Below, piece by piece: positions 399-58,470 of a DNA stretch of 64,000 nt (the stretch's first letter is position 1; every line of letters begins with the position of its first letter). Source of the DNA: Schmidtea nova (lineage: Eukaryota); assembly GCA_044892505.1 (NCBI GenBank), contig CM097882.1, forward strand, positions 312,356,001 through 312,420,000, read 5' to 3'. The notes beneath the pieces were generated by a model. The model was not told where the DNA came from, ran no database searches, and was given only the letters and a program-made list of their open reading frames with translations. A program made the translations under genes and the position numbers.

Positions 399-752
399 AT
401 AATTATATATATATATAAATATTTGCTTTTTAAACTCTGTAAATAAAATTTAAGGTAAATATTTTGTAAAGTAATTTTTGTATTAAATATCCAATCTTTT
501 TAATCTGATAAATTGTCTTTGAGAGTTATTAAATTGGGAGACCAAGTATTCTGCGACGTATGTCACTTATTCTAGAATTATCAACTTCAAAAGAATACAG
601 TCGCAAAGCTGGATGACGAAATCCAAAGAACCAGAAACTTCCATTCAGATTGAACAATTATATTTTGACTGTGATTGTTTAGGGACTAATCCATGTTGAT
701 TAGATAATCTGTAAAAAAATATGTCAAACTTGTTATATTTAATAAATGTTTA
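399..752 (+). other. Element 3' UTR (~354 nt), short (TA)n tract, AATAAA at 741-746, no poly(A) tail
   Basis: Near-identical in all 8 copies between the ORF2 TAA and the tRNA junction. Confidence 0.85.
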
Positions 753-807
753 TTATCACGTCTGCCTAACACGCAGAAGGTCCCCGGTTCGATCCCGGGT
801 CGAACCA
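753..807 (+). pseudogene. tRNA-Val(AAC) 3' fragment (nt 19-73), disrupted by insertion
   Basis: Exact match to tRNA nt 19-73; nt 1-18 replaced by the element 3' end. Confidence 0.93.
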
Positions 808-987
808 AATTTTTCTCAATTCATTATTTGACTTTTATTATATTTGCAACTCTTTTTTTAATTCATAACGCAATTTTGTTGTTGAATTCTCTACTTTGTA
901 CATAAATTTTATTCAAGTGAATTCAGTACATTTTGTCAAGGTAATTCGAAAATCAAACATGCACAACAATTGTTAGTTGAAACTGTC

Positions 988-1060
988 GGTTCGATGGTGT
1001 AGCGGTTATCACGTCTGCCTAACACGCAGAAGGTCCCCGGTTCGATCCCGGGTCGAACCA
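988..1060 (+). tRNA. tRNA-Val(AAC)
   Basis: Cloverleaf: acceptor GGTTCGA/TCGAACC, D stem GTG/CAC, anticodon stem TCTGC/GCAGA with loop CTAACAC, T stem CCCGG/CCGGG with loop TTCGATC; A box TGGTGTAGCGG, B box GGTTCGATCCC. Confidence 0.96.
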
Positions 1061-1062
1061 AA

Positions 1063-1067
1063 TTTTT
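1063..1067 (+). terminator. Pol III T5 terminator (repeated after every tRNA unit; a T7 run follows ~40 nt later)
   Basis: AATTTTT directly after the discriminator base. Confidence 0.8.
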
Positions 1068-1189
1068 CTCAATTCATTATTTGACTTTTATTATATTTGC
1101 AACTCTTTTTTTAATTCATAACGCAATTTTGTTGTTGAATTCTCTACTTTGTACATAAATTTTATTCAAGTGAATTCTTTCAAGGTTCG

Positions 1190-3823
1190 ATGACTCAATC
1201 ACCTGCTGCTCAGTCAACTGCTGCTGATGTAATGACTCAGTCTATTGCAAATCAGTCAACTGTGACGAAGCAATATGAATTAGAAAACATTCTCAAATAT
1301 CAAATTTCCAGTTTGCAATGTTTTCAATCGATTTTGGATTATTTTTCTCAACTAAATGGTGGAAATCTCGCTACTGCCTCAGTTCTATCTGATGCGAATG
1401 CAAGTCAACGGAGTTCTTTCGATCAAGGATCTAAAGTTTCTCCAAACCAATCTGATAATATGCCACTTTCTTATGCTGATATTGAGACTAAATTCACTAA
1501 ATCAAAGGATTTACTTATTGTCAAGCGCCTGGATTCATTGGAGTCTCAATTTATGAATATGGCTGAAAAGTTAGATTATTTGGTTTCTTTGTTTAATGGC
1601 TCTGTTGATGATTTATCAGATTTTCCTAAAGTAAATGAAAATAATTTAAATAATAATCCTTTCAATAAAAATAAAGTTTTTGATATCAAAGATAAATTAA
1701 TTGTAAATAATGTAGTTTTAGATAAATCAAATATTTCAGAATTTATTGAAAATAATATTGCTAAAATTCCTAATAGTTTAATTGATGTAAATAATAAAAT
1801 GTGTAATTCAAATAATAAATTTCTAAATAACCCTAATAAAGAGAATGTTAAACATTTTAATAATCCCAAAGATACATCTTCAATTGATTTGACTAACGAT
1901 AAAATTATGCCAAATGAAAACATAGAAATAATTATTAAAAATAATAAAAAATCTGTTAAAATTATAGAACTTTATAAAACAACTAAACAGAAGTATGATA
2001 AATTTGAATTTAAAAGTCTGGTTCGTATTTTAACGAAAAGGGAACGCCAGAAAATCTTGAATGCCTTCCCTGCTTTAATACAACTAATTAAAAAGAAAGA
2101 ATCACAGAGTAAATATTTTGAAATTAATAAATTTCTTTCGAGCAAAGATTTTAATGTGAATCACTTGAATTTAATTAATTTTGATTATTTTTTCTATAGA
2201 AATTGTAATCTTTGTGTATCTTTAAAATTGAACAACGCTCCTGTCATTTCATCAGCACCAAAACCTGTTGTTTTAAAAACTATTAAATTAATTGACCATA
2301 ATATCGTCAAAATAAATTCTGAAATCCCTGACTTTGTTCGAGCTCCAATGTCAATTCGAAGATTTTTATTCAATCTTTCGCACGATCTTTCAAACACTGT
2401 TTCCATCAAGGATGAGAAACACAGGGGAAATAAAATAAATAACATTCTTACTTCAATGAAACATAAACAACAATTACCAGATTATTTAATAAAATCAAAC
2501 ATTAAATACGAAAATGGTGAGTTCTTATTATTAGATTTGACTAACGATAAAATCAAATTGAACGACGATAATAACTTGATAAAATCAAATTTTTCTGAAC
2601 TTACTAGAAGTCAGATTAAAAATCTTTACCATTCTTATCCTTCTCTTAAGGAAGTTTGTTTCGTTGAAAATCTTGAAACAAGATCATCATCCGTTAGTAA
2701 AATTATCGAATCTTTAAAGTTAATTAATGAATTTCCAAAAAATATCATTTTTAAAGAGGGTAAATTTTATCAGTCTGATAAAAGAACAATCTCACCTAGT
2801 AGTTCTCCTGACATAATGTTCAACCTTGGTCTTTTTAATTTAGCTAGTATGAGTAGAAAAGATTGTGAATTAAAATCCATTTTAGAGAAGACTGGTTGTG
2901 ACTTTAAAATAGTTGAAATAATATTCTACCTCAACTATTTAGGCTTGACTCAATCTTTAGAATTTTGCAAAAATCAAACTTATTCTGATTATGTGAGGAA
3001 TTACGTCTGCAATTGCTGCTTGATAAACTCACTCTGTAGTATTGCTGATGTTGATTCGCTTTCATCTGAAGATTTTGAGGGTTGGGCGACCGAAATTGTT
3101 CAGAAAATCCCAGTTTCTTCCTATTACTTCAATAGCTGCCAGGAAAAGCTTTTAAAGCTGAAGCAATGGGACATTTCAACTAAAATCAAAAGAATCCATA
3201 ACGTTATTTCACCTGAAATAATATCTTATTTAAATAACTTTCTTGACTCTGTAGACGTAAAATTTCCATCTAAGTCTCAACAACATAATATTCTAATTAA
3301 ATTAATGAAAGCTATCAATGACATTAAAATTTTTGATGACATACACGGAAATAAAGCAAAAAGACTTGTTTACTTTTTGCTAAGAGATGCCAAGAAATAT
3401 TTGAATAAAAATCAACGATTCAGATTATTTGAATCGAGCAATAAATATTGCACTTTAGAGATGGAGAATATAATTTCAGTAATAATTGAGAACCTTACCA
3501 AAGTTACTGACCATGAAGTTACTACTCCTGAAATCACAGTTGAAGAAACGCCAATTGAAATAACTTGTGATCCTGAACCTATCGTCTTGATTAAGGAAAT
3601 AAACTGTTTAAAATGCAACAATATCATCGAAAAATGCATTCTTGTTAGAGATGGAACAAACGTCAACATCTGTGAAAGCTGTCTATTTGACGCAATTACC
3701 TTTGAAAAGCCGATTCCTGAAGCTACTAATTCGGATATCGAAGAAAATATAGAAACAAATTGTAAGAAATCTTGTCCAAGACCTAGAAAAACAGACAAGA
3801 AAACATCAACCAAAGCAAAATGA
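1190..3823 (+). CDS. ORF1 protein (877 aa), putative nucleic-acid-binding/structural protein with C-terminal CxxC..CxxC zinc finger
   Basis: Long ORF open in all 8 copies; CLKC..CESC motif, basic tail, possible coiled coil (KRLDSLESQFMNMAEKLDYL). Confidence 0.88.
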   Translation: MTQSPAAQSTAADVMTQSIANQSTVTKQYELENILKYQISSLQCFQSILDYFSQLNGGNLATASVLSDANASQRSSFDQGSKVSPNQSDNMPLSYADIETKFTKSKDLLIVKRLDSLESQFMNMAEKLDYLVSLFNGSVDDLSDFPKVNENNLNNNPFNKNKVFDIKDKLIVNNVVLDKSNISEFIENNIAKIPNSLIDVNNKMCNSNNKFLNNPNKENVKHFNNPKDTSSIDLTNDKIMPNENIEIIIKNNKKSVKIIELYKTTKQKYDKFEFKSLVRILTKRERQKILNAFPALIQLIKKKESQSKYFEINKFLSSKDFNVNHLNLINFDYFFYRNCNLCVSLKLNNAPVISSAPKPVVLKTIKLIDHNIVKINSEIPDFVRAPMSIRRFLFNLSHDLSNTVSIKDEKHRGNKINNILTSMKHKQQLPDYLIKSNIKYENGEFLLLDLTNDKIKLNDDNNLIKSNFSELTRSQIKNLYHSYPSLKEVCFVENLETRSSSVSKIIESLKLINEFPKNIIFKEGKFYQSDKRTISPSSSPDIMFNLGLFNLASMSRKDCELKSILEKTGCDFKIVEIIFYLNYLGLTQSLEFCKNQTYSDYVRNYVCNCCLINSLCSIADVDSLSSEDFEGWATEIVQKIPVSSYYFNSCQEKLLKLKQWDISTKIKRIHNVISPEIISYLNNFLDSVDVKFPSKSQQHNILIKLMKAINDIKIFDDIHGNKAKRLVYFLLRDAKKYLNKNQRFRLFESSNKYCTLEMENIISVIIENLTKVTDHEVTTPEITVEETPIEITCDPEPIVLIKEINCLKCNNIIEKCILVRDGTNVNICESCLFDAITFEKPIPEATNSDIEENIETNCKKSCPRPRKTDKKTSTKAK

Positions 3824-3889
3824 AGATGTGTGCCTGCATCAGCTCAATCGTCTGCCATTCCCTCTAATGAGACTGATGCAGAGAGCACA
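3821..3889 (+). promoter_or_regulatory. Putative stop-codon readthrough signal: in-frame UGA + downstream stem-loop
   Basis: TGTGC-CTGCATCAG-CTCA (3829-3846) pairs with TGAG-a-CTGATGCAG-aga-GCACA (3868-3889); same in all 8 copies. Confidence 0.6.
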
Positions 3890-6800
3890 ACTAAAAATAA
3901 TATTTCAACTATCGACAATCGTGATCCTGAAGTGTGGTTTTCTGATAATGATATTGATTGGTATCTTGAAAACCACATTGATAATCCAATGCATGGATAT
4001 ATTAAATGCTTTATAGTAAATATCATCTGTTCTAACATCACAGAAGATATTGTTGAAATTCCACCATCTATTAGCAATGCTGAAATTGTATTTTGTCCAC
4101 TCAACATTAACAATTCGCACTGGATTCTTTTTGTTTATAGTAAGAAAATGTTATCTTCTTACTTTATTGACCCAATCCTTGCAAACAGACAAAAGCCAAT
4201 CAATAAACAAATGGCTCAGAGAATTAATCTAAAACTGAATAGATTTTTTAATCTAAATATATCTGTGTCCCGACATCCACACAAACATCTTGAATATCAA
4301 AATAACAGCTTTGATTGTGGCCCATTTACGTGTGCTTATGCTGTGATTATCAGTAAAGATTTGAACAGCTTTCCAAATGGGTTCATAGAGAAAATTCGTA
4401 CCAGTGTGCATGAAAATCAAAATCGTATGCAAATAACCGAATCCACCTTATTCGCTGGTACTAACTCCAAGATGGACATGACCAAAATAAATATCAAGAA
4501 AGCCCTTGCAAAAAAGAAAGTCATCACCAACACCTCAGATATGACCAAAGTATTGAACACTCAAAAACCGTGTGTGTCATCAATAATTAGTAAATATTAC
4601 GAAAGTAATTCTAAAATAACAGTCTTATCTGCCGAACTAACTTTAAACCTAATTGCACAAAATACCTCCTTCATAGCTGATAATGTCACTTTCAAGCAGT
4701 TCAAAGGAATCGATCATGTTATAAGTATCATTCCTAAATTTAACGATTGGTGTCTCTTTGTCTATTCGAATAAACTTGACAGGAGCTACATGTTCGACTT
4801 CAATTATCGAAACATTGATGAAAGGCTAATTGAAATTGGTGAAAAGATAACTGAATATCTGAATCAATTCACTCTTGTTTCTAAAATAAAATTCACACCT
4901 CATCATAGAATTTCTCATCCAACATTTCATTCTTACGATGATCAATATTTTGCAAGTTCTTTTATTGTATTTTTTGAGAAACTTGTCTTTGAAAGAATAC
5001 TGGACAATGATAAGGTTTATGACTCATTAAGTGCTCTAAAATATCAGTCTTGTAAAGATCTTTCTCCTAGCTTAAGTTTCATTAATGGTAAAATATCCGA
5101 CAAAATTATTGAGGAATATTTTGCTAGCCTAAACTTATCGACCAAATATATTCTTCTAAACACAACAATGTGTACTGCGCTTTCAGATGATTGCACTGAA
5201 TACTTGAAAGACTTTGTAAACATTGAGTGCATGATGAAGGCTACTATAATCTTTGTAATCATTTCTCCTCCAAGAGCCAACGACTTGCTCATGGTTATTG
5301 ATTACGACGCTGATGAGCACTATTTATTAAGCCCAGTCACTAATGACTTGTTCGTTATGACTGAAGGATTCTGCTATAAATTACTAATTAAAATTAATGA
5401 GATTAGAGAGAGCACAGGTCGTTCCTTGAAATCGCGTAATTGTCGACATGACGTTAAAGGTTCTGGCTTATTTAGTAGGTTATTAATCTGTGCCTTTATT
5501 AAATATTATGCATTTGACCGATCTCTAGAAAATATCAATCTTCATGAAATTGGCAAAATTATCTACTCACTTGTGCCATTAGTTGATAAAAATGATAATG
5601 CTGAGGAAGAAAGACGACTAAAATCAAAAGCTGTAAACTCTTTAAAACTAAATTTAAAACAGCGAATAGAAAAAGCCAATAATCTTATAATTTCACTTGA
5701 ACACGCCAGTATTGATGAAATCATAAGTGGCATTCTTTCAAATATTCCTCGTCTTAAAGATTTGAACACCGATCACATTCGTACACCATATTTAGGTACT
5801 AAAGTAGAAAAAGCTAGAAAATTCAAAAATTCCACTGAATTTCTGTCAAACATGAAAAAGACTGTGTATAGGATTTTGGGTAACAACACAGAATCAATTG
5901 CACCTCCTTTTCAGGAAATTATTGACACTTTCAGTCATCCTGATACATTACCTAGAAATTGGGAAAACATCTTTAAATTCACTAAGAGTTCTAAATTTAG
6001 TCTTGAATTAAATCCAATGACACCTAAAGAAATCCTTTCAAGTCTTTGCAAAGCTGACAACACTTCTCCAGGTCTTGATAATGTTTGTTATAAAGATCTT
6101 TTGCTATTAGACCCTGAATGTAAATTGCTAGCTTTTCTGTACAATAAAATCCTAAAATTAGACATTATTCCTACAAGTTGGAAATCATTTAAAACCATAC
6201 TAATCCCTAAACCAGATAAAAATGGCCAATATCATAAAATATATTCTTGGCGACCAATTGCCTTATTATCTGTCATTTACAAAGTCTTCGCTTCAGTTTT
6301 GGCAAATCGTCTAAGCTTATGGATAAGAAATAATTCCATGTTACACATTGGCCAAAAGGGTGGTTCGGAGTACGAAGGATGTATTGAACACAACTCTATT
6401 CTTTCTGCTATCGTCGAACATTCAAAATACAGCAAGTCTTCACCTTTAACAATAGCTTGGCTAGACATCAAAGATGCCTTCGGAAGTGTTCCACATGACT
6501 ACATGTGGACACTGTTAAAACACATAAATGTTAGTGATAGGTTTGTAGGAATTTTAAAACTGCTCTATACTGATACAAGCTCGTTTTATTGTTGCAATAA
6601 AATGCAGACACCGGATATTCCAATAAAGAAAGGAGTTAAACAAGGTTGTCCGATCTCAATGATATTGTTTGCAATAGCTATTAACCCAGTACTTGAGTCT
6701 ATTAATCTATCAAACGTTAATCCTTTTACGATTGGAACATCTCCGGTACAGGTGTTGGCTTATGCGGATGATATCGCACTTATCGCGACAAATACCTCTG

Positions 6801-8440
6801 ATCTGCAAATACTCATAAACGTTGCTGTAAACACCGCTAAAACAATTGGATTTGAATATCGTCCAGAAAAGTGCGCTTATATGCAATACCCTAAAATAGA
6901 AACTGTAAGCGAGATTTCTGTCAACAATGTTCTTATAAAAAAGATTGCAACAAATGAATTTTACCAATACTTGGGAGTACCAATAGGTGACAATAATGAC
7001 CAAAGTCCCTATGAAATTCTAAGCAAAGTAATTGAAGACACAAAGAAAATAGCAAATTCTGATCTTTACGGCTGGCAAAAACTTAAAGCGTATAAGGTCT
7101 TTCTGCATTCTCGCTTGATTTTTCCATTTAGAACTAGGGAAATCAAAACAAGTTCTTTAGCTGATTCGAGTAAAAATTCAAAATTAAATGTAAATAATAC
7201 GAGTATTTTGAGGAGTCATCTTAGAAAAATATTGCACTTGCCACACTACTCTGAGATTAGCTATTTTTATAATTCTACTGAAAACGGCGGTGCAGGCTGC
7301 ATAGACTTACTTGACGAGTATCATACACAGACAATCGTGTACTTTTTCCGCTTGTTAACATCAACGTGCGAATATTCGAAAAAGATAAATACTGACTCGC
7401 TTTTATTTGTCACAAGTCCGAGACTCGGAATCAAAAATCCAGTTCTTAAACAAAGTTTAGAATGGATAAATGGAAAAGAGAGCAAGAAAAACAACAGTGG
7501 TTGCAAAACTCGATTTTATCGGTTGCGATCATCCATTGCTTACTTTTCTAAAGTTCACAACATTAAATTGTTATTTGAAACAGTGAAAGGGAATCCTTCT
7601 ATCCGTATAACCACTACACTTAAGGGAACACGTATATTATTACCAACATTAAGAAAAGCATTGTCAATGATTTTACATTCAGCTCTCCAGGATTCGTATC
7701 TCGAGAAATGGGAGAATAGCAACCATAATAATCTGCTTGTATCTGCGATTAAACTCTGTCCACTTGTCAACAAGCTTATTTTCCGCAGTGATTTGACAGA
7801 ATTTGAATGGAGATTCGTCCATCGAGCAAGAACGAATACATTATCAATATTTGCGAAGCCATATAAAACTGGCGAAAATCGTCTTTGTCGTAGATGTAAG
7901 CTTGAAGACGAGACTTTATCACACGTTCTTCAAACTTGTAAAATGAACAAATCTTTGGCAACTAGTCGACATAACGCTTGCTTAGAAAAAATAAAAAGCG
8001 AGTTGAAAGATCCAAACTTGTTAGTTGTTGCGGATCATAAATGTTCCCTAGTACCGACATCAACTGAACGCGTTGATTTAATAATAACCAATAATGATAA
8101 AAAGACCATATTATTGGTAGACATGAAATGCCCAATCGATTCGGTGCCCAACTTTGACTTGGCTGATAAAAAAAACATAGAAAAGTATGATAAACTAAAA
8201 TCGGAAATTAAAATAGCCAAACCCGATTATAAAGTTGAGTTGTTTACCTGCATCATAGGCTCATTAGGATCCATTGAAATTAAAACACCTGATCTTTTAG
8301 TAAAAATGGGCGTAAAAGAAAATAAAGTAAAACGTCTGATGAAAGAGTGTGCAATTAGCAATATTGCGCACTCGGCCAAAATTTGGTACTTTCATACCAA
8401 TGGCTTTCTTCCAGATAATATAAGACAAACTTTTAAATAA
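3830..8440 (+). CDS. ORF2: Ulp1-like protease + reverse transcriptase + CCHC + restriction-like endonuclease (frame open from 3824; true start uncertain)
   Basis: SHW/FID/QNNSFDCG protease triad; WRPIALL, LDIKDAFGSV, GVKQGCPIS, YADD, YLGV RT motifs; CRRC..HVLQTC, RHN, VD..D-x-K, KxxKY. Confidence 0.95.
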   Translation: MPASAQSSAIPSNETDAESTTKNNISTIDNRDPEVWFSDNDIDWYLENHIDNPMHGYIKCFIVNIICSNITEDIVEIPPSISNAEIVFCPLNINNSHWILFVYSKKMLSSYFIDPILANRQKPINKQMAQRINLKLNRFFNLNISVSRHPHKHLEYQNNSFDCGPFTCAYAVIISKDLNSFPNGFIEKIRTSVHENQNRMQITESTLFAGTNSKMDMTKINIKKALAKKKVITNTSDMTKVLNTQKPCVSSIISKYYESNSKITVLSAELTLNLIAQNTSFIADNVTFKQFKGIDHVISIIPKFNDWCLFVYSNKLDRSYMFDFNYRNIDERLIEIGEKITEYLNQFTLVSKIKFTPHHRISHPTFHSYDDQYFASSFIVFFEKLVFERILDNDKVYDSLSALKYQSCKDLSPSLSFINGKISDKIIEEYFASLNLSTKYILLNTTMCTALSDDCTEYLKDFVNIECMMKATIIFVIISPPRANDLLMVIDYDADEHYLLSPVTNDLFVMTEGFCYKLLIKINEIRESTGRSLKSRNCRHDVKGSGLFSRLLICAFIKYYAFDRSLENINLHEIGKIIYSLVPLVDKNDNAEEERRLKSKAVNSLKLNLKQRIEKANNLIISLEHASIDEIISGILSNIPRLKDLNTDHIRTPYLGTKVEKARKFKNSTEFLSNMKKTVYRILGNNTESIAPPFQEIIDTFSHPDTLPRNWENIFKFTKSSKFSLELNPMTPKEILSSLCKADNTSPGLDNVCYKDLLLLDPECKLLAFLYNKILKLDIIPTSWKSFKTILIPKPDKNGQYHKIYSWRPIALLSVIYKVFASVLANRLSLWIRNNSMLHIGQKGGSEYEGCIEHNSILSAIVEHSKYSKSSPLTIAWLDIKDAFGSVPHDYMWTLLKHINVSDRFVGILKLLYTDTSSFYCCNKMQTPDIPIKKGVKQGCPISMILFAIAINPVLESINLSNVNPFTIGTSPVQVLAYADDIALIATNTSDLQILINVAVNTAKTIGFEYRPEKCAYMQYPKIETVSEISVNNVLIKKIATNEFYQYLGVPIGDNNDQSPYEILSKVIEDTKKIANSDLYGWQKLKAYKVFLHSRLIFPFRTREIKTSSLADSSKNSKLNVNNTSILRSHLRKILHLPHYSEISYFYNSTENGGAGCIDLLDEYHTQTIVYFFRLLTSTCEYSKKINTDSLLFVTSPRLGIKNPVLKQSLEWINGKESKKNNSGCKTRFYRLRSSIAYFSKVHNIKLLFETVKGNPSIRITTTLKGTRILLPTLRKALSMILHSALQDSYLEKWENSNHNNLLVSAIKLCPLVNKLIFRSDLTEFEWRFVHRARTNTLSIFAKPYKTGENRLCRRCKLEDETLSHVLQTCKMNKSLATSRHNACLEKIKSELKDPNLLVVADHKCSLVPTSTERVDLIITNNDKKTILLVDMKCPIDSVPNFDLADKKNIEKYDKLKSEIKIAKPDYKVELFTCIIGSLGSIEIKTPDLLVKMGVKENKVKRLMKECAISNIAHSAKIWYFHTNGFLPDNIRQTFK

Positions 8441-8795
8441 ATAATTATATATATATATAAATATTTGCTTTTTAAACTCTGTAAATAAAAATTAAAGTAA
8501 ATATTTTGTAAAGTAATTTTTGTATTAAATATCCAATCTTTTTAATCTGATAAATTGTCTTTGAGAGTTATTAAATTGGGAGACCAAGTATTCTGCAACG
8601 TATGTCACTTATTCTAGACTTATCAACTTCAAAAGAATACAGTCGCAAAGCTGGATGACGAAATCCAAAGAACCAGAAACTTCCATTCAGATTGAACAAT
8701 TATATTTTGACTGTGATTGTTTAGGGACTAATCCATGTTGATTAGATAATCTGTAAAAAAAATATGTCAAACTTGTTATATTTAATAAATGTTTA

Positions 8796-8850
8796 TTATC
8801 ACGTCTGCCTAACACGCAGAAGGTCCCCGGTTCGATCCCGGGTCGAACCA
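8796..8850 (+). pseudogene. tRNA-Val(AAC) 3' fragment (nt 19-73)
   Basis: Same junction as 753. Confidence 0.93.
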
Positions 8851-9030
8851 AATTTTTCTCAATTCATTATTTGACTTTTATTATATTTGCAACTCTTTTT
8901 TTATTTCATAACGCAATTTTGTTGTTGAATTCTCTACTTTGTACATAAATTTTATTCAAGTGAATTCAGTACATTTTGTCAAGGTAATTCGAAAATCAAA
9001 CATGCACAACAATTGTTAGTTGAAACTGTC

Positions 9031-9103
9031 GGTTCGATGGTGTAGCGGTTATCACGTCTGCCTAACACGCAGAAGGTCCCCGGTTCGATCCCGGGTCGAA
9101 CCA
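9031..9103 (+). tRNA. tRNA-Val(AAC)
   Basis: Identical to 988-1060. Confidence 0.96.
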
Positions 9104-9283
9104 AATTTTTCTCAATTCATTATTTGACTTTTATTATATTTGCAACTCTTTTTTTAATTCATAACGCAATTTTGTTGTTGAATTCTCTACTTTGTACATA
9201 AATTTTATTCAAGTGAATTCAGTACATTTTGTCAAGGTAATTCGAAAATCAAACATGCACAACAATTGTTAGTTGAAACTGTC

Positions 9284-9356
9284 GGTTCGATGGTGTAGCG
9301 GTTATCACGTCTGCCTAACACGCAGAAGGTCCCCGGTTCGATCCCGGGTCGAACCA
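9284..9356 (+). tRNA. tRNA-Val(AAC)
   Basis: Identical to 988-1060. Confidence 0.96.
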
Positions 9357-9536
9357 AATTTTTCTCAATTCATTATTTGACTTTTATTATATTTGCAACT
9401 CTTTTTTTAATTCATAACGCAATTTTGTTGTTGAATTCTCTACTTTGTACATAAATTTTATTCAAGTGAATTCAGTACATTTTGTCAAGGTAATTCGAAA
9501 ATCAAACATGCACAACAATTGTTAGTTGAAACTGTC

Positions 9537-9609
9537 GGTTCGATGGTGTAGCGGTTATCACGTCTGCCTAACACGCAGAAGGTCCCCGGTTCGATCCCGG
9601 GTCGAACCA
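9537..9609 (+). tRNA. tRNA-Val(AAC)
   Basis: Identical to 988-1060. Confidence 0.96.
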
Positions 9610-9789
9610 AATTTTTCTCAATTCATTATTTGACTTTTATTATATTTGCAACTCTTTTTTTAATTCATAACGCAATTTTGTTGTTGAATTCTCTACTTTG
9701 TACATAAATTTTATTCAAGTGAATTCAGTACATTTTGTCAAGGTAATTCGAAAATCAAACATGCACAACAATTGTTAGTTGAAACTGTC

Positions 9790-9862
9790 GGTTCGATGGT
9801 GTAGCGGTTATCACGTCTGCCTAACACGCAGAAGGTCCCCGGTTCGATCCCGGGTCGAACCA
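9790..9862 (+). tRNA. tRNA-Val(AAC)
   Basis: Identical to 988-1060. Confidence 0.96.
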
Positions 9863-10042
9863 AATTTTTCTCAATTCATTATTTGACTTTTATTATATTT
9901 GCAACTCTTTTTTTAATTCATAACGCAATTTTGTTGTTGAATTCTCTACTTTGTACATAAATTTTATTCAAGTGAATTCAGTACATTTTGTCAAGGTAAT
10001 TCGAAAATCAAACATGCACAACAATTGTTAGTTGAAACTGTC

Positions 10043-10115
10043 GGTTCGATGGTGTAGCGGTTATCACGTCTGCCTAACACGCAGAAGGTCCCCGGTTCGA
10101 TCCCGGGTCGAACCA
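10043..10115 (+). tRNA. tRNA-Val(AAC)
   Basis: Identical to 988-1060. Confidence 0.96.
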
Positions 10116-10223
10116 AATTTTTCTCAATTCATTATTTGACTTTTATTATATTTGCAACTCTTTTTTTAAGTGTTGATATATATATTGTAAATTTTAACGA
10201 TTGATAAATTCTTTCAAGGTTCG

Positions 10224-12857
10224 ATGACTCAATCACCTGCTGCTCAGTCAACTGCTGCTGATGTGATGACTCAGTCTATTGGAAATCAGTCAACTGTGAC
10301 GAAGAAATATGAATTAGAAAACATTCTCAAGTATCAAATTTCCAGTTTGCAATGTTTTCAATCGATTTTGGATTATTTTTCGCAACTAAATGGTGGAAAT
10401 CTCGCTACTGCCTCAGTTCTTTCTGATGCGAATGCAAGTCAACGGAGTTCTTTCGATCAAGGATCTAAAATTTCTCAAAACCAATCTGATAATATGCCAC
10501 TTTCTTATGCTGATATTGAGACTAAATTCACTAAATCAAAGGATTTACTGATTGTCAAGCGCCTGGATTCATTGGAGTCTCAATTTATGAATATGGCTGA
10601 AAAGTTAGATTATTTGGTTTCTTTTTTTAATGGCTCTGTTGATGATTTATCAGATTTTCCTAAAGTAAATGAAAATAATTTAAATAATAATCCTTTCAAT
10701 AAAAATAAAGTTTTTGATATCAAAGATAAATTAATTGTAAATAATGTAGTTTTAGATAAATCAAATATTTCAGAATTTATTGAAAATAATATTGCTAAAA
10801 TTCCTAATAGTTTAATTGATGTAAATAATAAAATGTGTAATTCAAATAATAAATTTCTAAATAACCCTAATAAAGAGAATGTTAAACATTTTAATAATCC
10901 CAAAGAAACATCTTCAATTGATTTGACTAACGATAAAATTATGCCAAATGAAAACATAGAAATAATTATTAAAAATAATAAAAAATCTGTTAAAATTATA
11001 GAACCTAATAAAACAACTAAACAGAAGTATGATAAATTTGAATTTAAAAATCTGGTTCGTATTTTAACGAAAAGGGAACGCCAGAAAATCTTGAATGCCT
11101 TCCCTGCTTTAATACAACTAATTAAAAAGAAAGAATCACAGAGTAAATATTTTGAAATTAATAAATTTCTTTCGAGCAAAGATTTTAATGTGAATCACTT
11201 GAATTTAATTAATTTTGATTATTTTTTCTATAGAAATTGTAATCTTTGTGTATCTTTAAAATTGAACAACGCTCCTGTCATTTCATCAGCACCAAAACCT
11301 GTTGTTTTAAAATCTATTAAATTAATTGACCATAATATCGTCAAAATAAATTCTGAAATCCCTGACTTTGTTCGAGCTCCAATGTCAATTCGAAGATTTT
11401 TATTCAATCTTTCGCACGATCTTTCAAACACTGTTTCCATCAAGGATGAGAAACACAGGGGAAATAAAATAAATAACATTCTTACTTCAATGAAACATAA
11501 ACAACAATTACCAGATTATTTAATAAAATCAAACATTAAATACGAAAATGGTGAATTCTTATTATTAGATTTGACTAACGATAAAATCAAATTGAACGAC
11601 GATAATAACTTGATAAAATCAAATTTTTCTGAACTTACTAGAAGTCAGATTAAAAATCTTTACTATTCTTATCCTTCTCTTAAGGAAGTTTGTTTCGTTG
11701 AAAATCTTGAAACAAGATCATCATCCGTTAGTAAAATTATCGAATCTTTAAAGTTAATTAATGAATTTCCAAAAAATATCATTTTTAAAGAGGGTAAATT
11801 TTATCAGTCTGATAAAAGAACAATCTCACCTAGTAGTTCTCCTGACATAATGTTCAACCTAGGTCTTTTTAATTTGGCTAGTATGAGTAGAAAAGATTGT
11901 GAATTAAAATCCATTTTAGAGAAGACTGGTTGTGACTTTAAAATAGTTGAAATAATATTCTACCTCAACTATTTAGGCTTGACTCAATCTTTAGAATTTT
12001 GCAAAAATCAAACTTATTCCGATTATGTGAGGAATTACGTCTGTAATTGCTGCTTGATAAACTCACTCTGTAGTATTGCTGATGTTGATTCGCTTTCATC
12101 TGAAGATTTTGAGGGTTGGGCGACCGAAATTGTTCAGAAAATCCCAGTTTCTTCCTATTACTTCAATAGCTGCCAGGAAAAGCTTTTAAAGCTGAAGCAA
12201 TGGGACATTTCAACTAAAATCAAAAGAATCCATAACGTTATTTCACCTGAAATAATATCTTATTTAAATAACTTTCTTGACTCTGTAGACGTAAAATTTT
12301 CATCTAAGTCTCAACAACATAATATTCTAATTAAATTAATGAAAGCTATCAATGACATTAAAATTTTTGATGACATACACGGAAATAAAGCAAAAAGACT
12401 TGTTTACTTTTTGCTAAGAGATGCCAAGAAATATTTGAATAAAAATCAACGATTCAGATTATTTGAATCGAGCAATAAATATTGCACTTCAGAGATGGAG
12501 AATATAATTTCAGTAATAATTGAGAACCTTACCAAAGTTACTGACCATGAAGTTACTACTCCTGAAATCACAGTTGAAGAAACGCCAATTGAAATAACTT
12601 GTGATCCTGAACCTATCGTCTTGATTAAGGAAATAAACTGTTTAAAATGTAACAATATCATCGAAAAATGCATTCTTGTTAGAGATGGAACAAACGTCAA
12701 CATCTGTGAAAGCTGTCTATTTGACGCAATTACCTTTGAAAAGCCGATTCCTGAAGCTACTAATTCGGATATCGAAGAAAATATAGAAACAAATTGTAAG
12801 AAATCTTGTCCAAGACCTAGAAAAACAGACAAGAAAACATCAACCAAAGCAAAATGA
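10224..12857 (+). CDS. ORF1 protein (877 aa)
   Basis: Near-identical to the copy 1 ORF1. Confidence 0.88.
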   Translation: MTQSPAAQSTAADVMTQSIGNQSTVTKKYELENILKYQISSLQCFQSILDYFSQLNGGNLATASVLSDANASQRSSFDQGSKISQNQSDNMPLSYADIETKFTKSKDLLIVKRLDSLESQFMNMAEKLDYLVSFFNGSVDDLSDFPKVNENNLNNNPFNKNKVFDIKDKLIVNNVVLDKSNISEFIENNIAKIPNSLIDVNNKMCNSNNKFLNNPNKENVKHFNNPKETSSIDLTNDKIMPNENIEIIIKNNKKSVKIIEPNKTTKQKYDKFEFKNLVRILTKRERQKILNAFPALIQLIKKKESQSKYFEINKFLSSKDFNVNHLNLINFDYFFYRNCNLCVSLKLNNAPVISSAPKPVVLKSIKLIDHNIVKINSEIPDFVRAPMSIRRFLFNLSHDLSNTVSIKDEKHRGNKINNILTSMKHKQQLPDYLIKSNIKYENGEFLLLDLTNDKIKLNDDNNLIKSNFSELTRSQIKNLYYSYPSLKEVCFVENLETRSSSVSKIIESLKLINEFPKNIIFKEGKFYQSDKRTISPSSSPDIMFNLGLFNLASMSRKDCELKSILEKTGCDFKIVEIIFYLNYLGLTQSLEFCKNQTYSDYVRNYVCNCCLINSLCSIADVDSLSSEDFEGWATEIVQKIPVSSYYFNSCQEKLLKLKQWDISTKIKRIHNVISPEIISYLNNFLDSVDVKFSSKSQQHNILIKLMKAINDIKIFDDIHGNKAKRLVYFLLRDAKKYLNKNQRFRLFESSNKYCTSEMENIISVIIENLTKVTDHEVTTPEITVEETPIEITCDPEPIVLIKEINCLKCNNIIEKCILVRDGTNVNICESCLFDAITFEKPIPEATNSDIEENIETNCKKSCPRPRKTDKKTSTKAK

Positions 12858-12863
12858 AGATGT

Positions 12864-15800
12864 GTGCCTGCATCAGCTCAATCGTCTGCCATTCCCTCTA
12901 ATGAGACTGATGCAGAGAGCACAACTAAAAATAATATTTCAACTATCGACAATCGTGATCCTGAAGTGTGGTTTTCTGATAATGATATTGATTGGTATCT
13001 TGAAAACCACATTGATAATCCAATGCATGGATATATTAAATGCTTTATAGTAAATATCATCTGTTCTAACATCACAGAAGATATTGTTGAAATTCCACCA
13101 TCTATTAGCAATGCTGAAATTGTATTTTGTCCACTCAACATTAACAATTCGCACTGGATTCTTTTTGTTTATAGTAAGAAAATGTTATCTTCTTACTTTA
13201 TTGACCCAATCCTTGCAAACAGACAAAAGCCAATCAATAAACAAATGGCTCAGAGAATTAACCTAAAACTGAATAGATTTTTTAATCTAAATATATCTGT
13301 GTCCCGACATCCACACAAACATCTTGAATATCAAAATAACAGCTTTGATTGTGGCCCATTTACGTGTGCTTATGCTGTGATTATCAGTAAAGATTTGAAC
13401 AGCTTTCCAAATGGGTTCATAGAGAAAATTCGTACCAGTGTGCATGAAAATCAAAATCGTATGCAAATAACCGAATCCACCTTATTCGCTGGTACTAACT
13501 CCAAGATGGACATGACCAAAATAAATATCAAGAAAGCCCTTGCAAAAAAGAAAGTCATCACCAACACCTCAGATATGACCAAAGTATTGAACACTCAAAA
13601 ACCGTGTGTGTCATCAATAATTAGTAAATATTACGAAAGTAATTCTAAAATAACAGTCTTATCTGCCGAACTAACTTTAAACCTAATTGCACAAAATACC
13701 TCCTTCATAGCTGATAATGTCACTTTCAAGCAGTTCAAAGGAATCGATCATGTTATAAGTATCATTCCTAAATTTAACGATTGGTGTCTCTTTGTCTATT
13801 CGAATAAACTTGACAGGAGCTACATGTTCGACTTCAATTATCGAAACATTGATGAAAGGCTAATTGAAATTGGTGAAAAGATAACTGAATATCTGAATCA
13901 ATTCACTCTTGTTTCTAAAATAAAATTCACACCTCATCATAGAATTTCTCATCCAACATTTCATTCTTACGATGATCAATATTTTGCAAGTTCTTTTATT
14001 GTATTTTTTGAGAAACTTGTCTTTGAAAGAATACTGGACAATGATAAGGTTTATGACTCATTAAGTGCTCTAAAATATCAGTCTTGTAAAGATCTTTCTC
14101 CTAGCTTAAGTTTCATTAATGGTAAAATATCCGACAAAATTATTGAGGAATATTTTGCTAGCCTAAACTTATCGACCAAATATATTCTTCTAAACACAAC
14201 AATGTGTACTGCGCTTTCAGATGATTGCACTGAATACTTGAAAGACTTTGTAAACATTGAGTGCATGATGAAGGCTACTATAATCTTTGTAATCATTTCT
14301 CCTCCAAGAGCCAACGACTTGCTCATGGTTATTGATTACGACGCTGATGAGCACTATTTATTAAGCCCAGTCACTAATGACTTGTTCGTTATGACTGAAG
14401 GATTCTGCTATAAATTACTAATTAAAATTAATGAGATTAGAGAGAGCACAGGTCGTTCCTTGAAATCGCGTAATTGTCGACATGACGTTAAAGGTTCTGG
14501 CTTATTTAGTAGGTTATTAATCTGTGCCTTTATTAAATATTATGCATTTGACCGATCTCTAGAAAATATCAATCTTCATGAAATTGGCAAAATTATCTAC
14601 TCACTTGTGCCATTAGTTGATAAAAATGATAATGCTGAGGAAGAAAGACGACTAAAATCAAAAGCTGTAAACTCTTTAAAACTAAATTTAAAACAGCGAA
14701 TAGAAAAAGCCAATAATCTTATAATTTCACTTGAACACGCCAGTATTGATGAAATCATAAGTGGCATTCTTTCAAATATTCCTCGTCTTAAAGATTTGAA
14801 CACCGATCACATTCGTACACCATATTTAGGTACTAAAGTAGAAAAAGCTAGAAAATTCAAAAATTCCACTGAATTTCTGTCAAACATGAAAAAGACTGTG
14901 TATAGGATTTTGGGTAACAACACAGAATCAATTGCACCTCCTTTTCAGGAAATTATTGACACTTTCAGTCATCCTGATACATTACCTAGAAATTGGGAAA
15001 ACATCTTTAAATTCACTAAGAGTTCTAAATTTAGTCTTGAATTAAATCCAATGACACCTAAAGAAATCCTTTCAAGTCTTTGCAAAGCTGACAACACTTC
15101 TCCAGGTCTTGATAATGTTTGTTATAAAGATCTTTTGCTATTAGACCCTGAATGTAAATTGCTAGCTTTTCTGTACAATAAAATCCTAAAATTAGACATT
15201 ATTCCTACAAGTTGGAAATCATTTAAAACCATACTAATCCCTAAACCAGATAAAAATGGCCAATATCATAAAATATATTCTTGGCGACCAATTGCCTTAT
15301 TATCTGTCATTTACAAAGTCTTCGCTTCAGTTTTGGCAAATCGTCTAAGCTTATGGATAAGAAATAATTCCATGTTACACATTGGCCAAAAGGGTGGTTC
15401 GGAGTACGAAGGATGTATTGAACACAACTCTATTCTTTCTGCTATCGTCGAACATTCAAAATACAGCAAGTCTTCACCTTTAACAATAGCTTGGCTAGAC
15501 ATCAAAGATGCCTTCGGAAGTGTTCCACATGACTACATGTGGACACTGTTAAAACACATAAATGTTAGTGATAGGTTTGTAGGAATTTTAAAACTGCTCT
15601 ATACTGATACAAGCTCGTTTTATTGTTGCAATAAAATGCAGACACCGGATATTCCAATAAAGAAAGGAGTTAAACAAGGTTGTCCGATCTCAATGATATT
15701 GTTTGCAATAGCTATTAACCCAGTACTTGAGTCTATTAATCTATCAAACGTTAATCCTTTTACGATTGGAACATCTCCGGTACAGGTGTTGGCTTATGCG

Positions 15801-17474
15801 GATGATATCGCACTTATCGCGACAAATACCTCTGATCTGCAAATACTCATAAACGTTGCTGTAAACACCGCTAAAACAATTGGATTTGAATATCGTCCAG
15901 AAAAGTGCGCTTATATGCAATACCCTAAAATAGAAACTGTAAGCGAGATTTCTGTCAACAATGTTCTTATAAAAAAGATTGCAACAAATGAATTTTACCA
16001 ATACTTGGGAGTACCAATAGGTGACAATAATGACCAAAGTCCCTATGAAATTCTAAGCAAAGTAATTGAAGACACAAAGAAAATAGCAAATTCTGATCTT
16101 TACGGCTGGCAAAAACTTAAAGCGTATAAGGTCTTTCTGCATTCTCGCTTGATTTTTCCATTTAGAACTAGGGAAATCAAAACAAGTTCTTTAGCTGATT
16201 CGAGTAAAAATTCAAAATTAAATGTAAATAATACGAGTATTTTGAGGAGTCATCTTAGAAAAATATTGCACTTGCCACACTACTCTGAGATTAGCTATTT
16301 TTATAATTCTACTGAAAACGGCGGTGCAGGCTGCATAGACTTACTTGACGAGTATCATACACAGACAATCGTGTACTTTTTCCGCTTGTTAACATCAACG
16401 TGCGAATATTCGAAAAAGATAAATACTGACTCGCTTTTATTTGTCACAAGTCCGAGACTCGGAATCAAAAATCCAGTTCTTAAACAAAGTTTAGAATGGA
16501 TAAATGGAAAAGAGAGCAAGAAAAACAACAGTGGTTGCAAAACTCGATTTTATCGGTTGCGATCATCCATTGCTTACTTTTCTAAAGTTCACAACATTAA
16601 ATTGTTATTTGAAACAGTGAAAGGGAATCCTTCTATCCGTATAACCACTACACTTAAGGGAACACGTATATTATTACCAACATTAAGAAAAGCATTGTCA
16701 ATGATTTTACATTCAGCTCTCCAGGATTCGTATCTCGAGAAATGGGAGAATAGCAACCATAATAATCTGCTTGTATCTGCGATTAAACTCTGTCCACTTG
16801 TCAACAAGCTTATTTTCCGCAGTGATTTGACAGAATTTGAATGGAGATTCGTCCATTGAGCAAGAACGAATACATTATCAATATTTGCGAAGCCATATAA
16901 AACTGGCGAAAATCGTCTTTGTCGTAGATGTAAGCTTGAAGACGAGACTTTATCACACGTTCTTCAAACTTGTAAAATGAACAAATCTTTGGCAACTAGT
17001 CGACATAACGCTTGCTTAGAAAAAATAAAAAGCGAGTTGAAAGATCCAAACTTGTTAGTTGTTGCGGATCATAAATGTTCCCTAGTACCGACATCAACTG
17101 AACGCGTTGATTTAATAATAACCAATAATGATAAAAAGACCATATTATTGGTAGACATGAAATGCCCAATCGATTCGGTGCCCAACTTTGACTTGGCTGA
17201 TAAAAAAAACATAGAAAAGTATGATAAACTAAAATCGGAAATTAAAATAGCCAAACCCGATTATAAAGTTGAGTTGTTTACCTGCATCATAGGCTCATTA
17301 GGATCCATTGAAATTAAAACACCTGATCTTTTAGTAAAAATGGGCGTAAAAGAAAATAAAGTAAAACGTCTGATGAAAGAGTGTGCAATTAGCAATATTG
17401 CGCACTCGGCCAAAATTTGGTACTTTCATACCAATGGCTTTCTTCCAGATAATATAAGACAAACTTTTAAATAA
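12864..17474 (+). pseudogene. ORF2 with premature stop (CGA>TGA at 16857) before the CCHC/endonuclease
   Basis: CATTGAGCA here vs CATCGAGCA in other copies; frame continues to 17474. Confidence 0.88.
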
Positions 17475-42668: not shown

Positions 42669-42672
42669 TTCG

Positions 42673-53854: not shown

Positions 53855-53860
53855 AGATGT

Positions 53861-56800
53861 GTGCCTGCATCAGCTCAATCGTCTGCCATTCCCTCTAATG
53901 AGACTGATGCAGAGAGCACAACTAAAAATAATATTTCAACTATCGACAATCGTGATCCTGAAGTGTGGTTTTCTGATAATGATATTGATTGGTATCTTGA
54001 AAACCACATTGATAATCCAATGCATGGATATATTAAATGCTTTATAGTAAATATCATCTGTTCTAACATCACAGAAGATATTGTTGAAATTCCACCATCT
54101 ATTAGCAATGCTGAAATTGTATTTTGTCCACTCAACATTAACAATTCGCACTGGATTCTTTTTGTTTATAGTAAGAAAATGTTATCTTCTTACTTTATTG
54201 ACCCAATCCTTGCAAACAGACAAAAGCCAATCAATAAACAAATGGCTCAGAGAATTAACCTAAAACTGAATAGATTTTTTAATCTAAATATATCTGTGTC
54301 CCGACATCCACACAAACATCTTGAATATCAAAATAACAGCTTTGATTGTGGCCCATTTACGTGTGCTTATGCTGTGATTATCAGTAAAGATTTGAACAGC
54401 TTTCCAAATGGGTTCATAGAGAAAATTCGTACCAGTGTGCATGAAAATCAAAATCGTATGCAAATAACCGAATCCACCTTATTCGCTGGTACTAACTCCA
54501 AGATGGACATGACCAAAATAAATATCAAGAAAGCTCTTGCAAAAAAGAAAGTCATCACCAACACCTCAGATATGACCAAAATATTGAACACTCAAAAACC
54601 GTGTGTGTCATCAATAATTAGTAAATATTACGAAAGTAATTCTAAAATAACAGTCTTATCTGCTGAACTAACTTTAAACCTAATTGCACAAAATACCTCC
54701 TTCATAGCTGATAATGTCACTTTCAAGCAGTTCAAAGGAATCGATCATGTTATAAGCATCATTCCTAAATTTAACGATTGGTGTCTCTTTGTCTATTCGA
54801 ATAAACTTGACAGGAGCTACATGTTCGACTTCAATTATCGAAACATTGATGAAAGGCTAATTGAAATTGGTGAAAAGATAACTGAATATCTGAATCAATT
54901 CACTCTTGTTTCTAAAATAAAATTCACACCTCATCATAGAATTTCTCATCCAACATTTCATTCTTACGATGATCAATATTTTGCAAGTTCTTTTATTGTA
55001 TTTTTTGAGAAACTTGTCTTTGAAAGAATACTTGACAATGATAAGGTTTATGACTCATTAAGTGCTCTAAAATATCAGTCTTGTAAAGATCTTTCTCCTA
55101 GCCTAAGTTTCATTAATGGTAAAATATCCGACAAAATTATTGAGGAATATTTTGCTAGCCTAAACTTATCGACCAAATATATTCTTCTAAACACAACAAT
55201 GTGTAGTGCGCTTTCAGATGATTGCACTGAATACTTGAAAGACTTTGTAAACATTGAGTGCATGATGAAGGCTACTGTAATCTTTGTAATCATTTCTCCT
55301 CCAAGAGCCCACGACTTGCTCATGGTTATTGATTACGACGCTGATGAGCACTATTTATTAAGCCCAGTCACTAATGACTTGTTCGTTATGACTGAAGGAT
55401 TCTGCTATAAATTACTAATTAAAATTAATGAGATTAGAGAGAGCACAGGACGTTCCTTGAAATCGCGTAATTGTCGACATGACGTTAAAGGTTCTGGCTT
55501 ATTTAGTAGGTTATTAATCTGTGCCTTTATTAAATATTATGCATTTGACCGATCTCTAGAAAATATCAATCTACATGAAATTGGCAAAATTATCTACTCA
55601 CTTGTGCCATTAGTTGATAAAAATGATAATGCTGAGGAAGAAAGACGACTAAAATCAAAAGCTGTAAACTCTTTAAAACTAAATTTAAAACAGCGAATAG
55701 AAAAAGCCAATAATCTTATAATTTCACTTGAACACGCTAGTATTGATGAAATCATAAGTGGCATTCTTTCAAATATTCCTCGTCTTAAAGATTTGAACAC
55801 CGATCACATTCGTACACCATATTTAGGTACTAAAATAGAAAAAGCTAGAAAATTCAAAAATTCCACTGAATTTCTGTCAAACATGAAAAAGACTGTGTAT
55901 AGGATTTTGGGTAACAACACAGAATCAATTGCACCTCCTTTTCAGGAAATTATTGACACTTTCAGTCATCCTGATACATTACCTAGAAATTGGGAAAACA
56001 TCTTAAAATTCACCAAGAGTTCTAAATATAGTCTTGAATTAAATCCAATGACACCTAAAGAAATCCTTTCAAGTCTTTGCAAAGCTGACAACACTTCTCC
56101 AGGTCTTGATAATGTTTGTTATAAAGATCTTTTGTTATTAGACCCTGAATGTAAATTGCTAGCTTTTCTGTACAATAAAATCCTAAAATTAGACATTATT
56201 CCTACAAGTTGGAAATCATTTAAAACCATACTAATCCCCAAACCAGATAAAAATGGCCAATATCATAAAATATATTCTTGGCGACCAATTGCCTTATTAT
56301 CTGTCATTTACAAAGTCTTCGCTTCAGTTTTGGCAAATCGTCTAAGCTTATGGATAAGAAATAATTCCATGTTACACATTGGCCAAAAAGGTGGTTCGGA
56401 GTACGAAGGATGTATTGAACACAACTCTATTCTTTCTGCTATCGTCGAACATTCAAAATACAGCAAGTCTTCACCTTTAACGATAGCTTGGCTAGACATC
56501 AAAGATGCCTTCGGAAGTGTTCCACATGACTACATGTGGACACTGTTAAAACACATAAATGTTAGTGATAGGTTTGTAGGAATTTTAAAACTGCTCTATA
56601 CTGATACAAGCTCGTTTTATTGTTGCAATAAAATGCAGACACCGGATATTCCAATAAAGAAAGGAGTTAAACAAGGTTGTCCGATCTCAATGATATTGTT
56701 TGCAATAGCTATTAACCCAGTACTTGAGTCTATTAATCTATCAAACGTTAATCCTTTTACGATTGGAACATCTCCGGTACAGGTGTTGGCTTATGCGGAT

Positions 56801-58470
56801 GATATCGCACTTATCGCGACAAATACCTCTGATCTGCAAATACTCATAAACGTTGCTGTAAACACCGCTAAAACAATTGGATTTGAATATCGTCCAGAAA
56901 AGTGCGCTTATATGCAATACCCTAAAATAGAAACTGTAAGCGAGATTTCTGTCAACAACGTTCTTATAAAAAAGATTGCAACAAATGAATTTTACCAATA
57001 CTTGGGAGTACCAATAGGTGACAATAATGACCAAAGTCCCTATGAAATTCTAAGCAAAGTAATTGAAGACACAAAGAAAATAGCAAATTCTGATCTTTAC
57101 GGCTGGCAAAAACTTAAAGCGTATAAGGTCTTTCTGCATTCTCGCTTGATTTTTCCATTTAGAACTAGGGAAATCAAAACAAGTTCTTTAGCTGATTCGA
57201 GTAAAAATTCAAAATTAAATGTAAATAATACGAGTATTTTGAGGAGTCATCTTAGAAAAATATTGCACTTGCCACACTACTCTGAGATTAGCTATTTTTA
57301 TAATTCTACTGAAAACGGCGGTGCAGGCTGCATAGACTTACTTGACGAGTATCATACACAGACAATCGTGTACTTTTTCCGCTTGTTAACATCATCGTGC
57401 GAATATTCGAAAAAGATAAATACTGACTCGCTTTTATTTGTCACAAGTCCGAGACTCGGAATCAAAAATCCAGTTCTTAAACAAAGTTTAGAATGGATAA
57501 ATGGAAAAGAGAGCAAGAAAAACAACAGTGGTTGCAAAACTCGATTTTATCGGTTGCGATCATCCATTGCTTACTTTTCTAAAGTTCACAACATTAAATT
57601 GTTATTTAAACAGTGAAAGGGAATCCTTCTATCCGTATAACCACTACACTTAAGGGAACACGTATATTATTACCAACATTAAGAAAAGCCTTGTCAATGA
57701 TTTTACATTCAGCTCTCCAGGATTCGTATCTCGAGAAATGGGAGAATAGCAATCATAATAATCTGCTTGTATCTGCGATAAAACTCTGTCCACTTGTCAA
57801 CAAGCTTATTTTCCGCAGTGATTTGACAGAATTTGAATGGAGATTCGTCCATCGAGCAAGAACGAATACATTATCAATATTTGCGAAGCCATATAAAACT
57901 GGCGAAAATCGTCTTTGTCGTAGATGTAAGCTTGAAGACGAGACTTTATCACACGTTCTTCAAACTTGTAAAATGAACAAATCTTTGGCAACTAGTCGAC
58001 ATAACGCTTGCTTAGAAAAAATAAAAAGCGAGTTGAAAGATCCAAACTTGTTAGTTGTTGCGGATCATAAATGTTCCCTAGTACCGACATCAACTGAACG
58101 CGTTGATTTAATAATAACCAATAATGATAAAAAGACCATATTATTGGTAGACATGAAATGCCCAATCGATTCGGTGCCCAACTTTGACTTGGCTGATAAA
58201 AAAAACATAGAAAAGTATGATAAACTAAAATCGGAAATTAAAATAGCCAAACCCGATTATAAAGTTGAGTTGTTTACCTGCATCATAGGCTCATTAGGAT
58301 CCATTGAAATTAAAACACCTGATCTTTTAGTAAAAATGGGTGTAAAAGAAAATAGAGTAAAACGTCTGATGAAAGAGTGTGCAATTAGCAATATTGCGCA
58401 CTCGGCCAAAATTTGGTACTTTCATACCAATGGCTTTCTTCCAGATAATATAAGACAAACTTGTAAATAA
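53861..58470 (+). pseudogene. ORF2 with 1-bp deletion after 57607 (frameshift before the CCHC/endonuclease)
   Basis: TTATTTAAACAGTG vs TTATTTGAAACAGTG in other copies; split into 1251-aa and 285-aa ORFs. Confidence 0.85.

Follow-up and report, generated by a model that had tools for sequence, protein, structure and literature searches.

Two conserved, catalytically dead Ulp1-like domains accompany an intact protease in a tRNA-gene retrotransposon of Schmidtea nova

Introduction

The closest described systems are the nematode NeSL retrotransposons and Utopia-1_TSP, each with one Ulp1-like protease domain, and the LIN families, which target tRNA genes (passages of PMC4640811). We analysed a 64,000-nucleotide stretch of the Schmidtea nova genome (GCA_044892505.1, contig CM097882.1, positions 312,356,001 to 312,420,000, forward strand; hereafter the window), a tandem array of 253-bp tRNA-Val(AAC) units with 23 whole tRNA-Val genes that is broken up by near-identical 7.6-kb elements. 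These elements carry a separate first open reading frame (ORF1), an in-frame UGA and a tRNA-Val target, whereas NeSL and Utopia-1_TSP use SL1 or U2; and where the latter have one protease domain, ORF2 here has three (D1, D2 and D3), two of them dead (compared with the same passages). Like the planarian R5/LIN elements described there (LIN15_SM in tRNA-Arg, LIN25_SM in tRNA-Glu), the element has a restriction-like endonuclease (RLE), inserts inside tRNA genes and belongs to a set with diversified targets, its sister families occupying tRNA-Met, -Thr and -Lys genes and an AAT microsatellite. Those passages of PMC4640811 mention no protease for R5/LIN, and the comparison is by description only; by analogy, we infer that the element is an R5/LIN member.

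Cellular C48 enzymes (Ulp1, SENP1/2/5 and NEDP1 (SENP8)) have a single catalytic domain, in contrast to D2 and D3, which are without catalytic residues, and plant CACTA transposons carry single C48 domains (excerpts of PMC8978399). The families of adenain, poxvirus I7L and the African swine fever virus (ASFV) protease pS273R belong to clan CE together with Ulp1 (excerpts of PMC12445089); unlike the element, these are separate DNA-virus enzymes with no dead copies, and cleavage by the element is a prediction. A search of literature excerpts, whose reach lay outside the original NeSL-1 paper, the R5 paper and Repbase, turned up no description of retrotransposon-borne Ulp1 copies that are tandem or dead, and the excerpts found did not address the role of Ulp1-like domains in retrotransposons without long terminal repeats (non-LTR). 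Our preferred explanation, to which we give a probability of about 0.55, is that D1 cuts a polyprotein at an L-x-(G/A)-G linker and that D2 and D3 stay on the reverse transcriptase (RT) as a probable non-catalytic binding module.

D1 is an intact protease and D2 and D3 have lost its catalytic residues

ORF2 (3824..8440, on the forward strand like all features below; 1538 aa stop to stop) has the order D1, linker, D2, D3, RT, CCHC finger, RLE. D1 (aa 34-202; 3923..4429) is an intact C48/Ulp1-type protease that scores above the Pfam cut-off (PF02902, E 3e-8) and has a predicted clan CE fold. It shows the clan CE catalytic order, His, then Asp/Asn, then Gln, then Cys (excerpts of PMC12445089): His99 (4118), Asp116 (4169), Gln159 (4298) and Cys165 (4316) align with SENP2 and Ulp1, accompanied by W38, D41 and W100. 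We scored catalytic columns in a joint alignment of 62 domains, where His, Trp, Asp, Gln and Cys were all intact in 23 of 23 first domains.

A first-pass annotation of this DNA had proposed two catalytically dead Ulp1-like domains in tandem ahead of the RT. This held: the motifs are present in D2 (aa 247-408; 4562..5047) and D3 (aa 417-582; 5072..5569), and neither domain carries the catalytic His, Gln and Cys of an active C48 protease. In the window, D2 has Asp308 in the His column, Asp373 in the Cys column and Phe368 in the Gln column, retaining W309 and D325; D3 has Asn486, Ser503, Lys545 and Ser551 in the His, Asp, Gln and Cys columns, with His486 in one of seven copies. The copy with His486, at 53855, belongs to a subtype that has diverged slightly. 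None of the 12 D2 rows has His or Cys in the catalytic columns. Among the 18 D3 rows Cys and Gln never occur; 14 rows have Ser in the Cys column, 11 still have His in its own column, and His, Asn and Ser are found together in 8. The second domains of two-domain relatives (n = 6) are less decayed, with Trp in 6/6, Asp in 5/6 and Ser for Cys in 5/6, and His in 0/6.

D3 also lacks both tryptophans of the di-glycine tunnel (Trp follows the catalytic His column in 0/18 rows), and the Asp of the W-x-x-D motif is present in 3 rows only. The N-terminal W-x-x-D motif is missing from D2, in which Trp follows the His column in 6/12 rows. Neither domain therefore retains the pair, W-x-x-D plus Trp after His, that a SUMO trap would keep. 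We take Ulp1 D451 to be the equivalent of the W-x-x-D Asp.

Profiles, predicted structure and conservation support a triplicated C48 fold

Single-sequence comparison reached significance for D1 and D2 (score 73, matched by 0/1000 shuffles), and of the expected self-similarity that pair alone stood at this level. Profiles of ten sequences extended it to all three pairs (D1-D2, E 1.8e-4; D2-D3, E 2.2e-4; D1-D3, E 4.7e-3). The best of 25 control pairs in hhalign, D1 against aa 590-745, reached E 0.006, and for this reason the D1-D3 match was not used alone. For a stronger test, we ran D2 and D3 hidden Markov models (HMMs) against sequences outside their training set. The D2 HMM matched the single intact protease of locus L025 (8e-8) and those of L031, L034 and L039 (about 1e-5), and the D3 HMM matched L025 (4e-6) and both domains of database protein P0010; no reversed decoy passed 0.046. 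Over 1.84 billion representatives, a D2-D3 profile gave only 34 matches at E 0.001 or better; these included two-domain relatives and P0055, whose C48 domain is intact (E 1.2e-6). Pfam found two C48 stretches in 4 of 19 scanned proteins (P0010, P0011, P0057 and P0059). Weak matches of D2 and D3 to DHC_N1, COMMD10 and langerin were rejected as chance.

In the predicted structure, run on multi-domain pieces, the closest folds were SENP, Ulp1 and NEDP1. D3 has a predicted clan CE fold. D2, folded in such pieces only, has profile homology, high predicted local distance difference test (pLDDT) values and the same secondary-structure order as D3, so that the expectation of a C48 fold in both was borne out for D3, and for D2 as far as this shared order. 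D1, D2 and D3 are homologous, and catalytic residues have been lost in D2 and D3. Sequence, profile and predicted-structure evidence together uphold the earlier reading of a triplicated C48 fold with two pseudo-proteases, the three-fold repeat structure itself being a prediction.

The dead copies are under purifying selection. The ratio of nonsynonymous to synonymous change (dN/dS) between L022 and L023 was 0.13 for each of D1, D2 and D3. Mean identity across seven three-domain proteins was 0.36 for D1, 0.27 for D2, 0.35 for D3 and 0.17 for the D1-D2 linker, and the D3 motif G-S-G-L-x-S-x-x-L-x-C was invariant among proteins that share only 23-28% identity. We rejected an assembly artefact because D2-D3 is open in 7/7 complete window copies and in 116/116 scored genome matches. 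In this 1.25-Gb genome the D2-D3 search scored 116 of 1425 candidates, all 116 at 99-100% and with no internal stop.

A glycine motif follows the intact protease

The first-pass annotation had missed two features: a conserved Gly-Gly in the D1-D2 linker, pointing to self-processing, and the probable readthrough junction upstream. Of 24 multi-domain proteins, 20 have a Gly-Gly pair 38-49 residues past the catalytic Cys, 9 of the 20 with Leu two residues ahead of it; the same stretch has the pair in 0/8 single-domain proteins and 8/298 background windows. The motif persists, while identity over the rest of the linker is 17%. At its place, the window element has LFAG (4448..4459) in a linker predicted to be disordered (pLDDT <50), and from the motif counts we predict a self-cleavage site there. 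The basic linker that follows (4460..4561; KKALAKKK, net +6) may serve as a nuclear localisation signal at the new N-terminus. Ubiquitin ends in L-x-G-G, which is also the site cut by adenain and the ASFV protease; poxvirus I7L cuts at A-G. The excerpts of PMC13612098 contained no cleavage consensus. GGG precedes the single protease in four of eight single-domain elements (L027, L032, L039 and P0055; L031, L034 and P0026 were uninformative), so that the RT-linked C48 domain again follows a glycine site.

A conserved UGA separates ORF1 from the protease

A single TGA (3821-3823) separates ORF1 from ORF2 in 8/8 window copies, and the first ATG of ORF2 is aa 56, inside D1 and past the W-x-x-D motif. 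An in-frame TGA lies ahead of ORF2 in 15 of 17 related loci (for example L021:4255, L022:5599-5601, L025:4374, L027:5293-5295 and L039:5283-5285); L033 starts at TAG and L040 at TAA, inside the protease, and both look like broken copies. Eight loci have TGA-CTA aligned with the conserved tryptophan of C48 proteases (Trp position: PMC4640811 S5 Fig), and readthrough would therefore complete the protease motif. TGA-CTA at the Trp codon is typical of most one-domain families, and a conserved stem-loop after the TGA of three-domain families. The predicted RNA stem-loop of the window element (3824..3892) is a likely readthrough stimulator (z -3.8; 0/200 shuffles as stable). Its stem is conserved in four aligned sequences, and the arms are identical in L021, L022 and L023, in which synonymous sites elsewhere are near saturation. 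Post-TGA hairpins in L032 (z -1.7) and L037 (z -0.4) were not significant. A conserved in-frame stop in a stimulator context, the sequence signature of programmed UGA readthrough, is present here, making readthrough the likeliest route to ORF2. A rival route would be reinitiation at GTG 3830, aided by the downstream structure, as has been described for SART1 (excerpts of PMC5972666).

Proposed mechanism and competing explanations

As we picture it, ribosomes very probably read through the UGA to make an ORF1-D1-D2-D3-RT-RLE polyprotein. By analogy with other clan CE proteases, D1 would then probably cleave after the glycine pair, freeing ORF1-D1 from D2-D3-RT-RLE. On balance, a first duplication seems to have split the ancestral jobs, cutting passing to D1, while the copy linked to the RT (Cys to Ser) took a structural or protein-binding role and was re-duplicated into D2 and D3: a C48 fold would be kept on the RT in both layouts, leaving the RT-linked copy free to lose catalysis once a second copy cuts. 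For D2-D3 we lean slightly towards binding of a protein surface, or organisation of the N-terminal end of the RT, away from the former active site and not by classical SUMO trapping. Predicting D2-D3 in complex with the RT region, with alignments unused, gave a score of 0.00 and is evidence neither way.

Several points weigh against self-cleavage followed by non-catalytic binding. We infer self-cleavage, expression and binding from sequence. The glycine counts come from 24 related sequences and are not independent; the remaining 4 of 24 proteins have G-x-G (three) or the LFAG of the window element; and ORF1 of L025 has no Gly-Gly. P0006 and P0036, at least, dispense with D2 and have D1 and D3 only. 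Lists of structure matches were filled by D1 or D3, with no separate match of D2 to solved structures. The domain tree is FastTree only and has long branches; P0056, with a cut N-terminus, has an RT-adjacent domain that carries His, Asp and Cys, yet falls among the D2 rows; and the RT tree leaves one-, two- and three-domain forms unordered and the position of P0010/P0011 open, a constraint holding the three-domain rows together not being rejected (p-AU 0.31).

The annotation had suggested that the dead domains bind SUMO, RNA or DNA. A fuller version of the first idea is that D1 is mainly a host deSUMOylase or deubiquitylase, with D2 and D3 as readers of SUMO or ubiquitin chains that feed D1 or shield the element from SUMO-dependent silencing. 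The closest folds are those of SENP, Ulp1 and NEDP1, and this role is compatible with self-cleavage. In yeast Ulp1, replacing the Cys by Ser creates a SUMO trap (C580S; excerpts of PMC3216068), a change shared by D3 (14/18 rows) and the second domain of two-domain relatives, where Trp after the His column is also kept (6/6). The trap, however, keeps its SUMO-binding surface and Asp451, the equivalents of which are largely lost in D2 and D3, and D451N abolishes its SUMO binding (same excerpts). With the tunnel tryptophans gone from D3 and W-x-x-D from D2, SUMO binding was not borne out, the glycine linker is left unexplained, and we consider this role unlikely. Nucleic-acid binding, with D2-D3 contacting element RNA or target DNA in place of the N-terminal zinc fingers of other RLE elements, is more improbable. 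It would fit the N-terminal place of D2-D3 ahead of the RT, the absence of an N-terminal finger from ORF2 and, going by the title of a reference, the role of viral DNA as an adenain cofactor. Net charge is -1 for D2 and -3 for D3 (family means -1.8 and -3.4), so that charge offers no sign of contact with RNA or DNA. Nor does the choice of target follow D2-D3, since L022 and L023 are 94-96% identical there (77-82% in the C-terminal part) and sit in different tRNA genes.

Slightly less probable again is that D2 and D3 are remnants in decay, serving only as a folded spacer: D2 changes faster than the other domains and is missing in the two relatives named above, but both domains have the dN/dS of the active protease, and the invariant D3 motif tells against decay. 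The joint presence of His, Asn and Ser in eight D3 rows, with His486 in one window copy, leaves a small chance that D3 is a rewired Ser-His-Asn hydrolase in some relatives; we rate this as very improbable, because His is absent in 7/18 rows, including intact high-copy families and 6/7 window copies, the oxyanion Gln is absent in 18/18, and the alignment of the His column is uncertain. A chance likeness of D2 and D3 to D1 would suit the single-sequence scores for D1-D3 and D2-D3, which were not significant, and the sequence searches: a Pfam scan of D2 and D3 (alone or as ten aligned members) gave no C48, and a D2-D3 profile found none among PDB sequences. This idea is scarcely credible and, for D3, already refuted. 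A bolder extension of self-cleavage with non-catalytic binding, which we regard as doubtful, is that of a retrovirus-like readthrough polyprotein, cut by a captured SUMO-type protease, whose two dead copies dock the RT on a host protein (such as chromatin marked with SUMO, or the RNA polymerase III machinery of tRNA genes). If true, the families with one, two and three copies would be a natural stepwise record of a protease turning into a targeting or anti-silencing adaptor.

The predicted self-cleavage site gives the family a testable answer to what an Ulp1-like domain does in such elements. Conservation of the dead copies shows a second, non-catalytic job for the fold, and relatives with one, two or three copies offer a natural series in which to study the origin of a pseudo-enzyme. 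For site-specific RLE gene-insertion tools, the analysis predicts the start of the mature RT protein and the dependence of ORF2 on readthrough.

Relatives and history of the duplications

Across 20 stretches of this genome, the targets of three-domain families are tRNA-Met genes, tRNA-Thr genes and an AAT microsatellite, whereas families with one domain occupy tRNA-Lys genes and other sites. Each family has its own target: L022 and L036 tRNA-Met, L023 tRNA-Thr, L025 tRNA-Lys and L021 the AAT repeat. Database relatives include three-domain proteins down to about 25% identity over the D1-D3 region, plus two-domain ones. A branch with support 96 sets 24 intact domains apart from the dead ones, with D2 and D3 in separate groups; the tree is consistent with an initial duplication accompanied by inactivation, after which the dead copy was itself duplicated. 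RT trees were built as a first, quick tree of 38 rows (P0028 left out for short coverage) and a careful tree of 25 rows, without most protease-less rows and P0026. A clade of 12 unites all 11 three-domain rows with P0006 (100/96).

Between L022:1033-5598 and L023:1054-5619, the proportion of synonymous differences (pS) is 0.12-0.19 up to the RT and 0.53-0.68 in the thumb and endonuclease, a contrast that suggests recombination swapping the C-terminal part together with the target.

The element and its insertion site

ORF1 (1190..3823; 877 aa) has a Cys4 finger near its C-terminus and ends in the TGA in frame with ORF2; it matched no Pfam family at cut-off. The RT (6203..6982; Pfam RVT_1, E 1.6e-29) has YADD at 6761. 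A CCHC finger and the RLE follow (7886..8413, from sequence motifs), the latter with R-V-D ... D-x-K in the C-terminal part of ORF2, which we take to be the RLE motif. The RT followed by the CCHC finger and RLE, with a site-specific 3' junction, makes this an RLE non-LTR retrotransposon. The window holds eight ORF1 starts and eight element 3' ends; after all eight ends the array resumes at nucleotide 19 of the tRNA-Val(AAC) gene (8796..8850 for the copy described). An Rfam scan of 700-10300 found tRNAs only.

The 3' junctions are exact, and the 5' junctions carry deletions of array sequence and vary, with 12, 54 or 4 non-array bases ahead of the ORF1 ATG (1178-1189, 10170-10223 and 42669-42672). 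A target duplication of 13 bases accompanies the copy at 42673. Around the start of ORF1 the sequence (GGTTCGATG) is identical to the initial nine bases of the tRNA-Val gene. Of the seven copies in which the ORF2 region is whole, two have a late ORF2 frameshift (12858-16859 and 53855-57616).

A search for host SUMO genes returned ubiquitin fused in another transposon. This is a high-copy element (L041-L046; G000, at least 150 matches) with long reading frames and a near-complete ubiquitin, flanked by what we take to be an Hsp70-like fragment and a BEL/Pao-like gag region.
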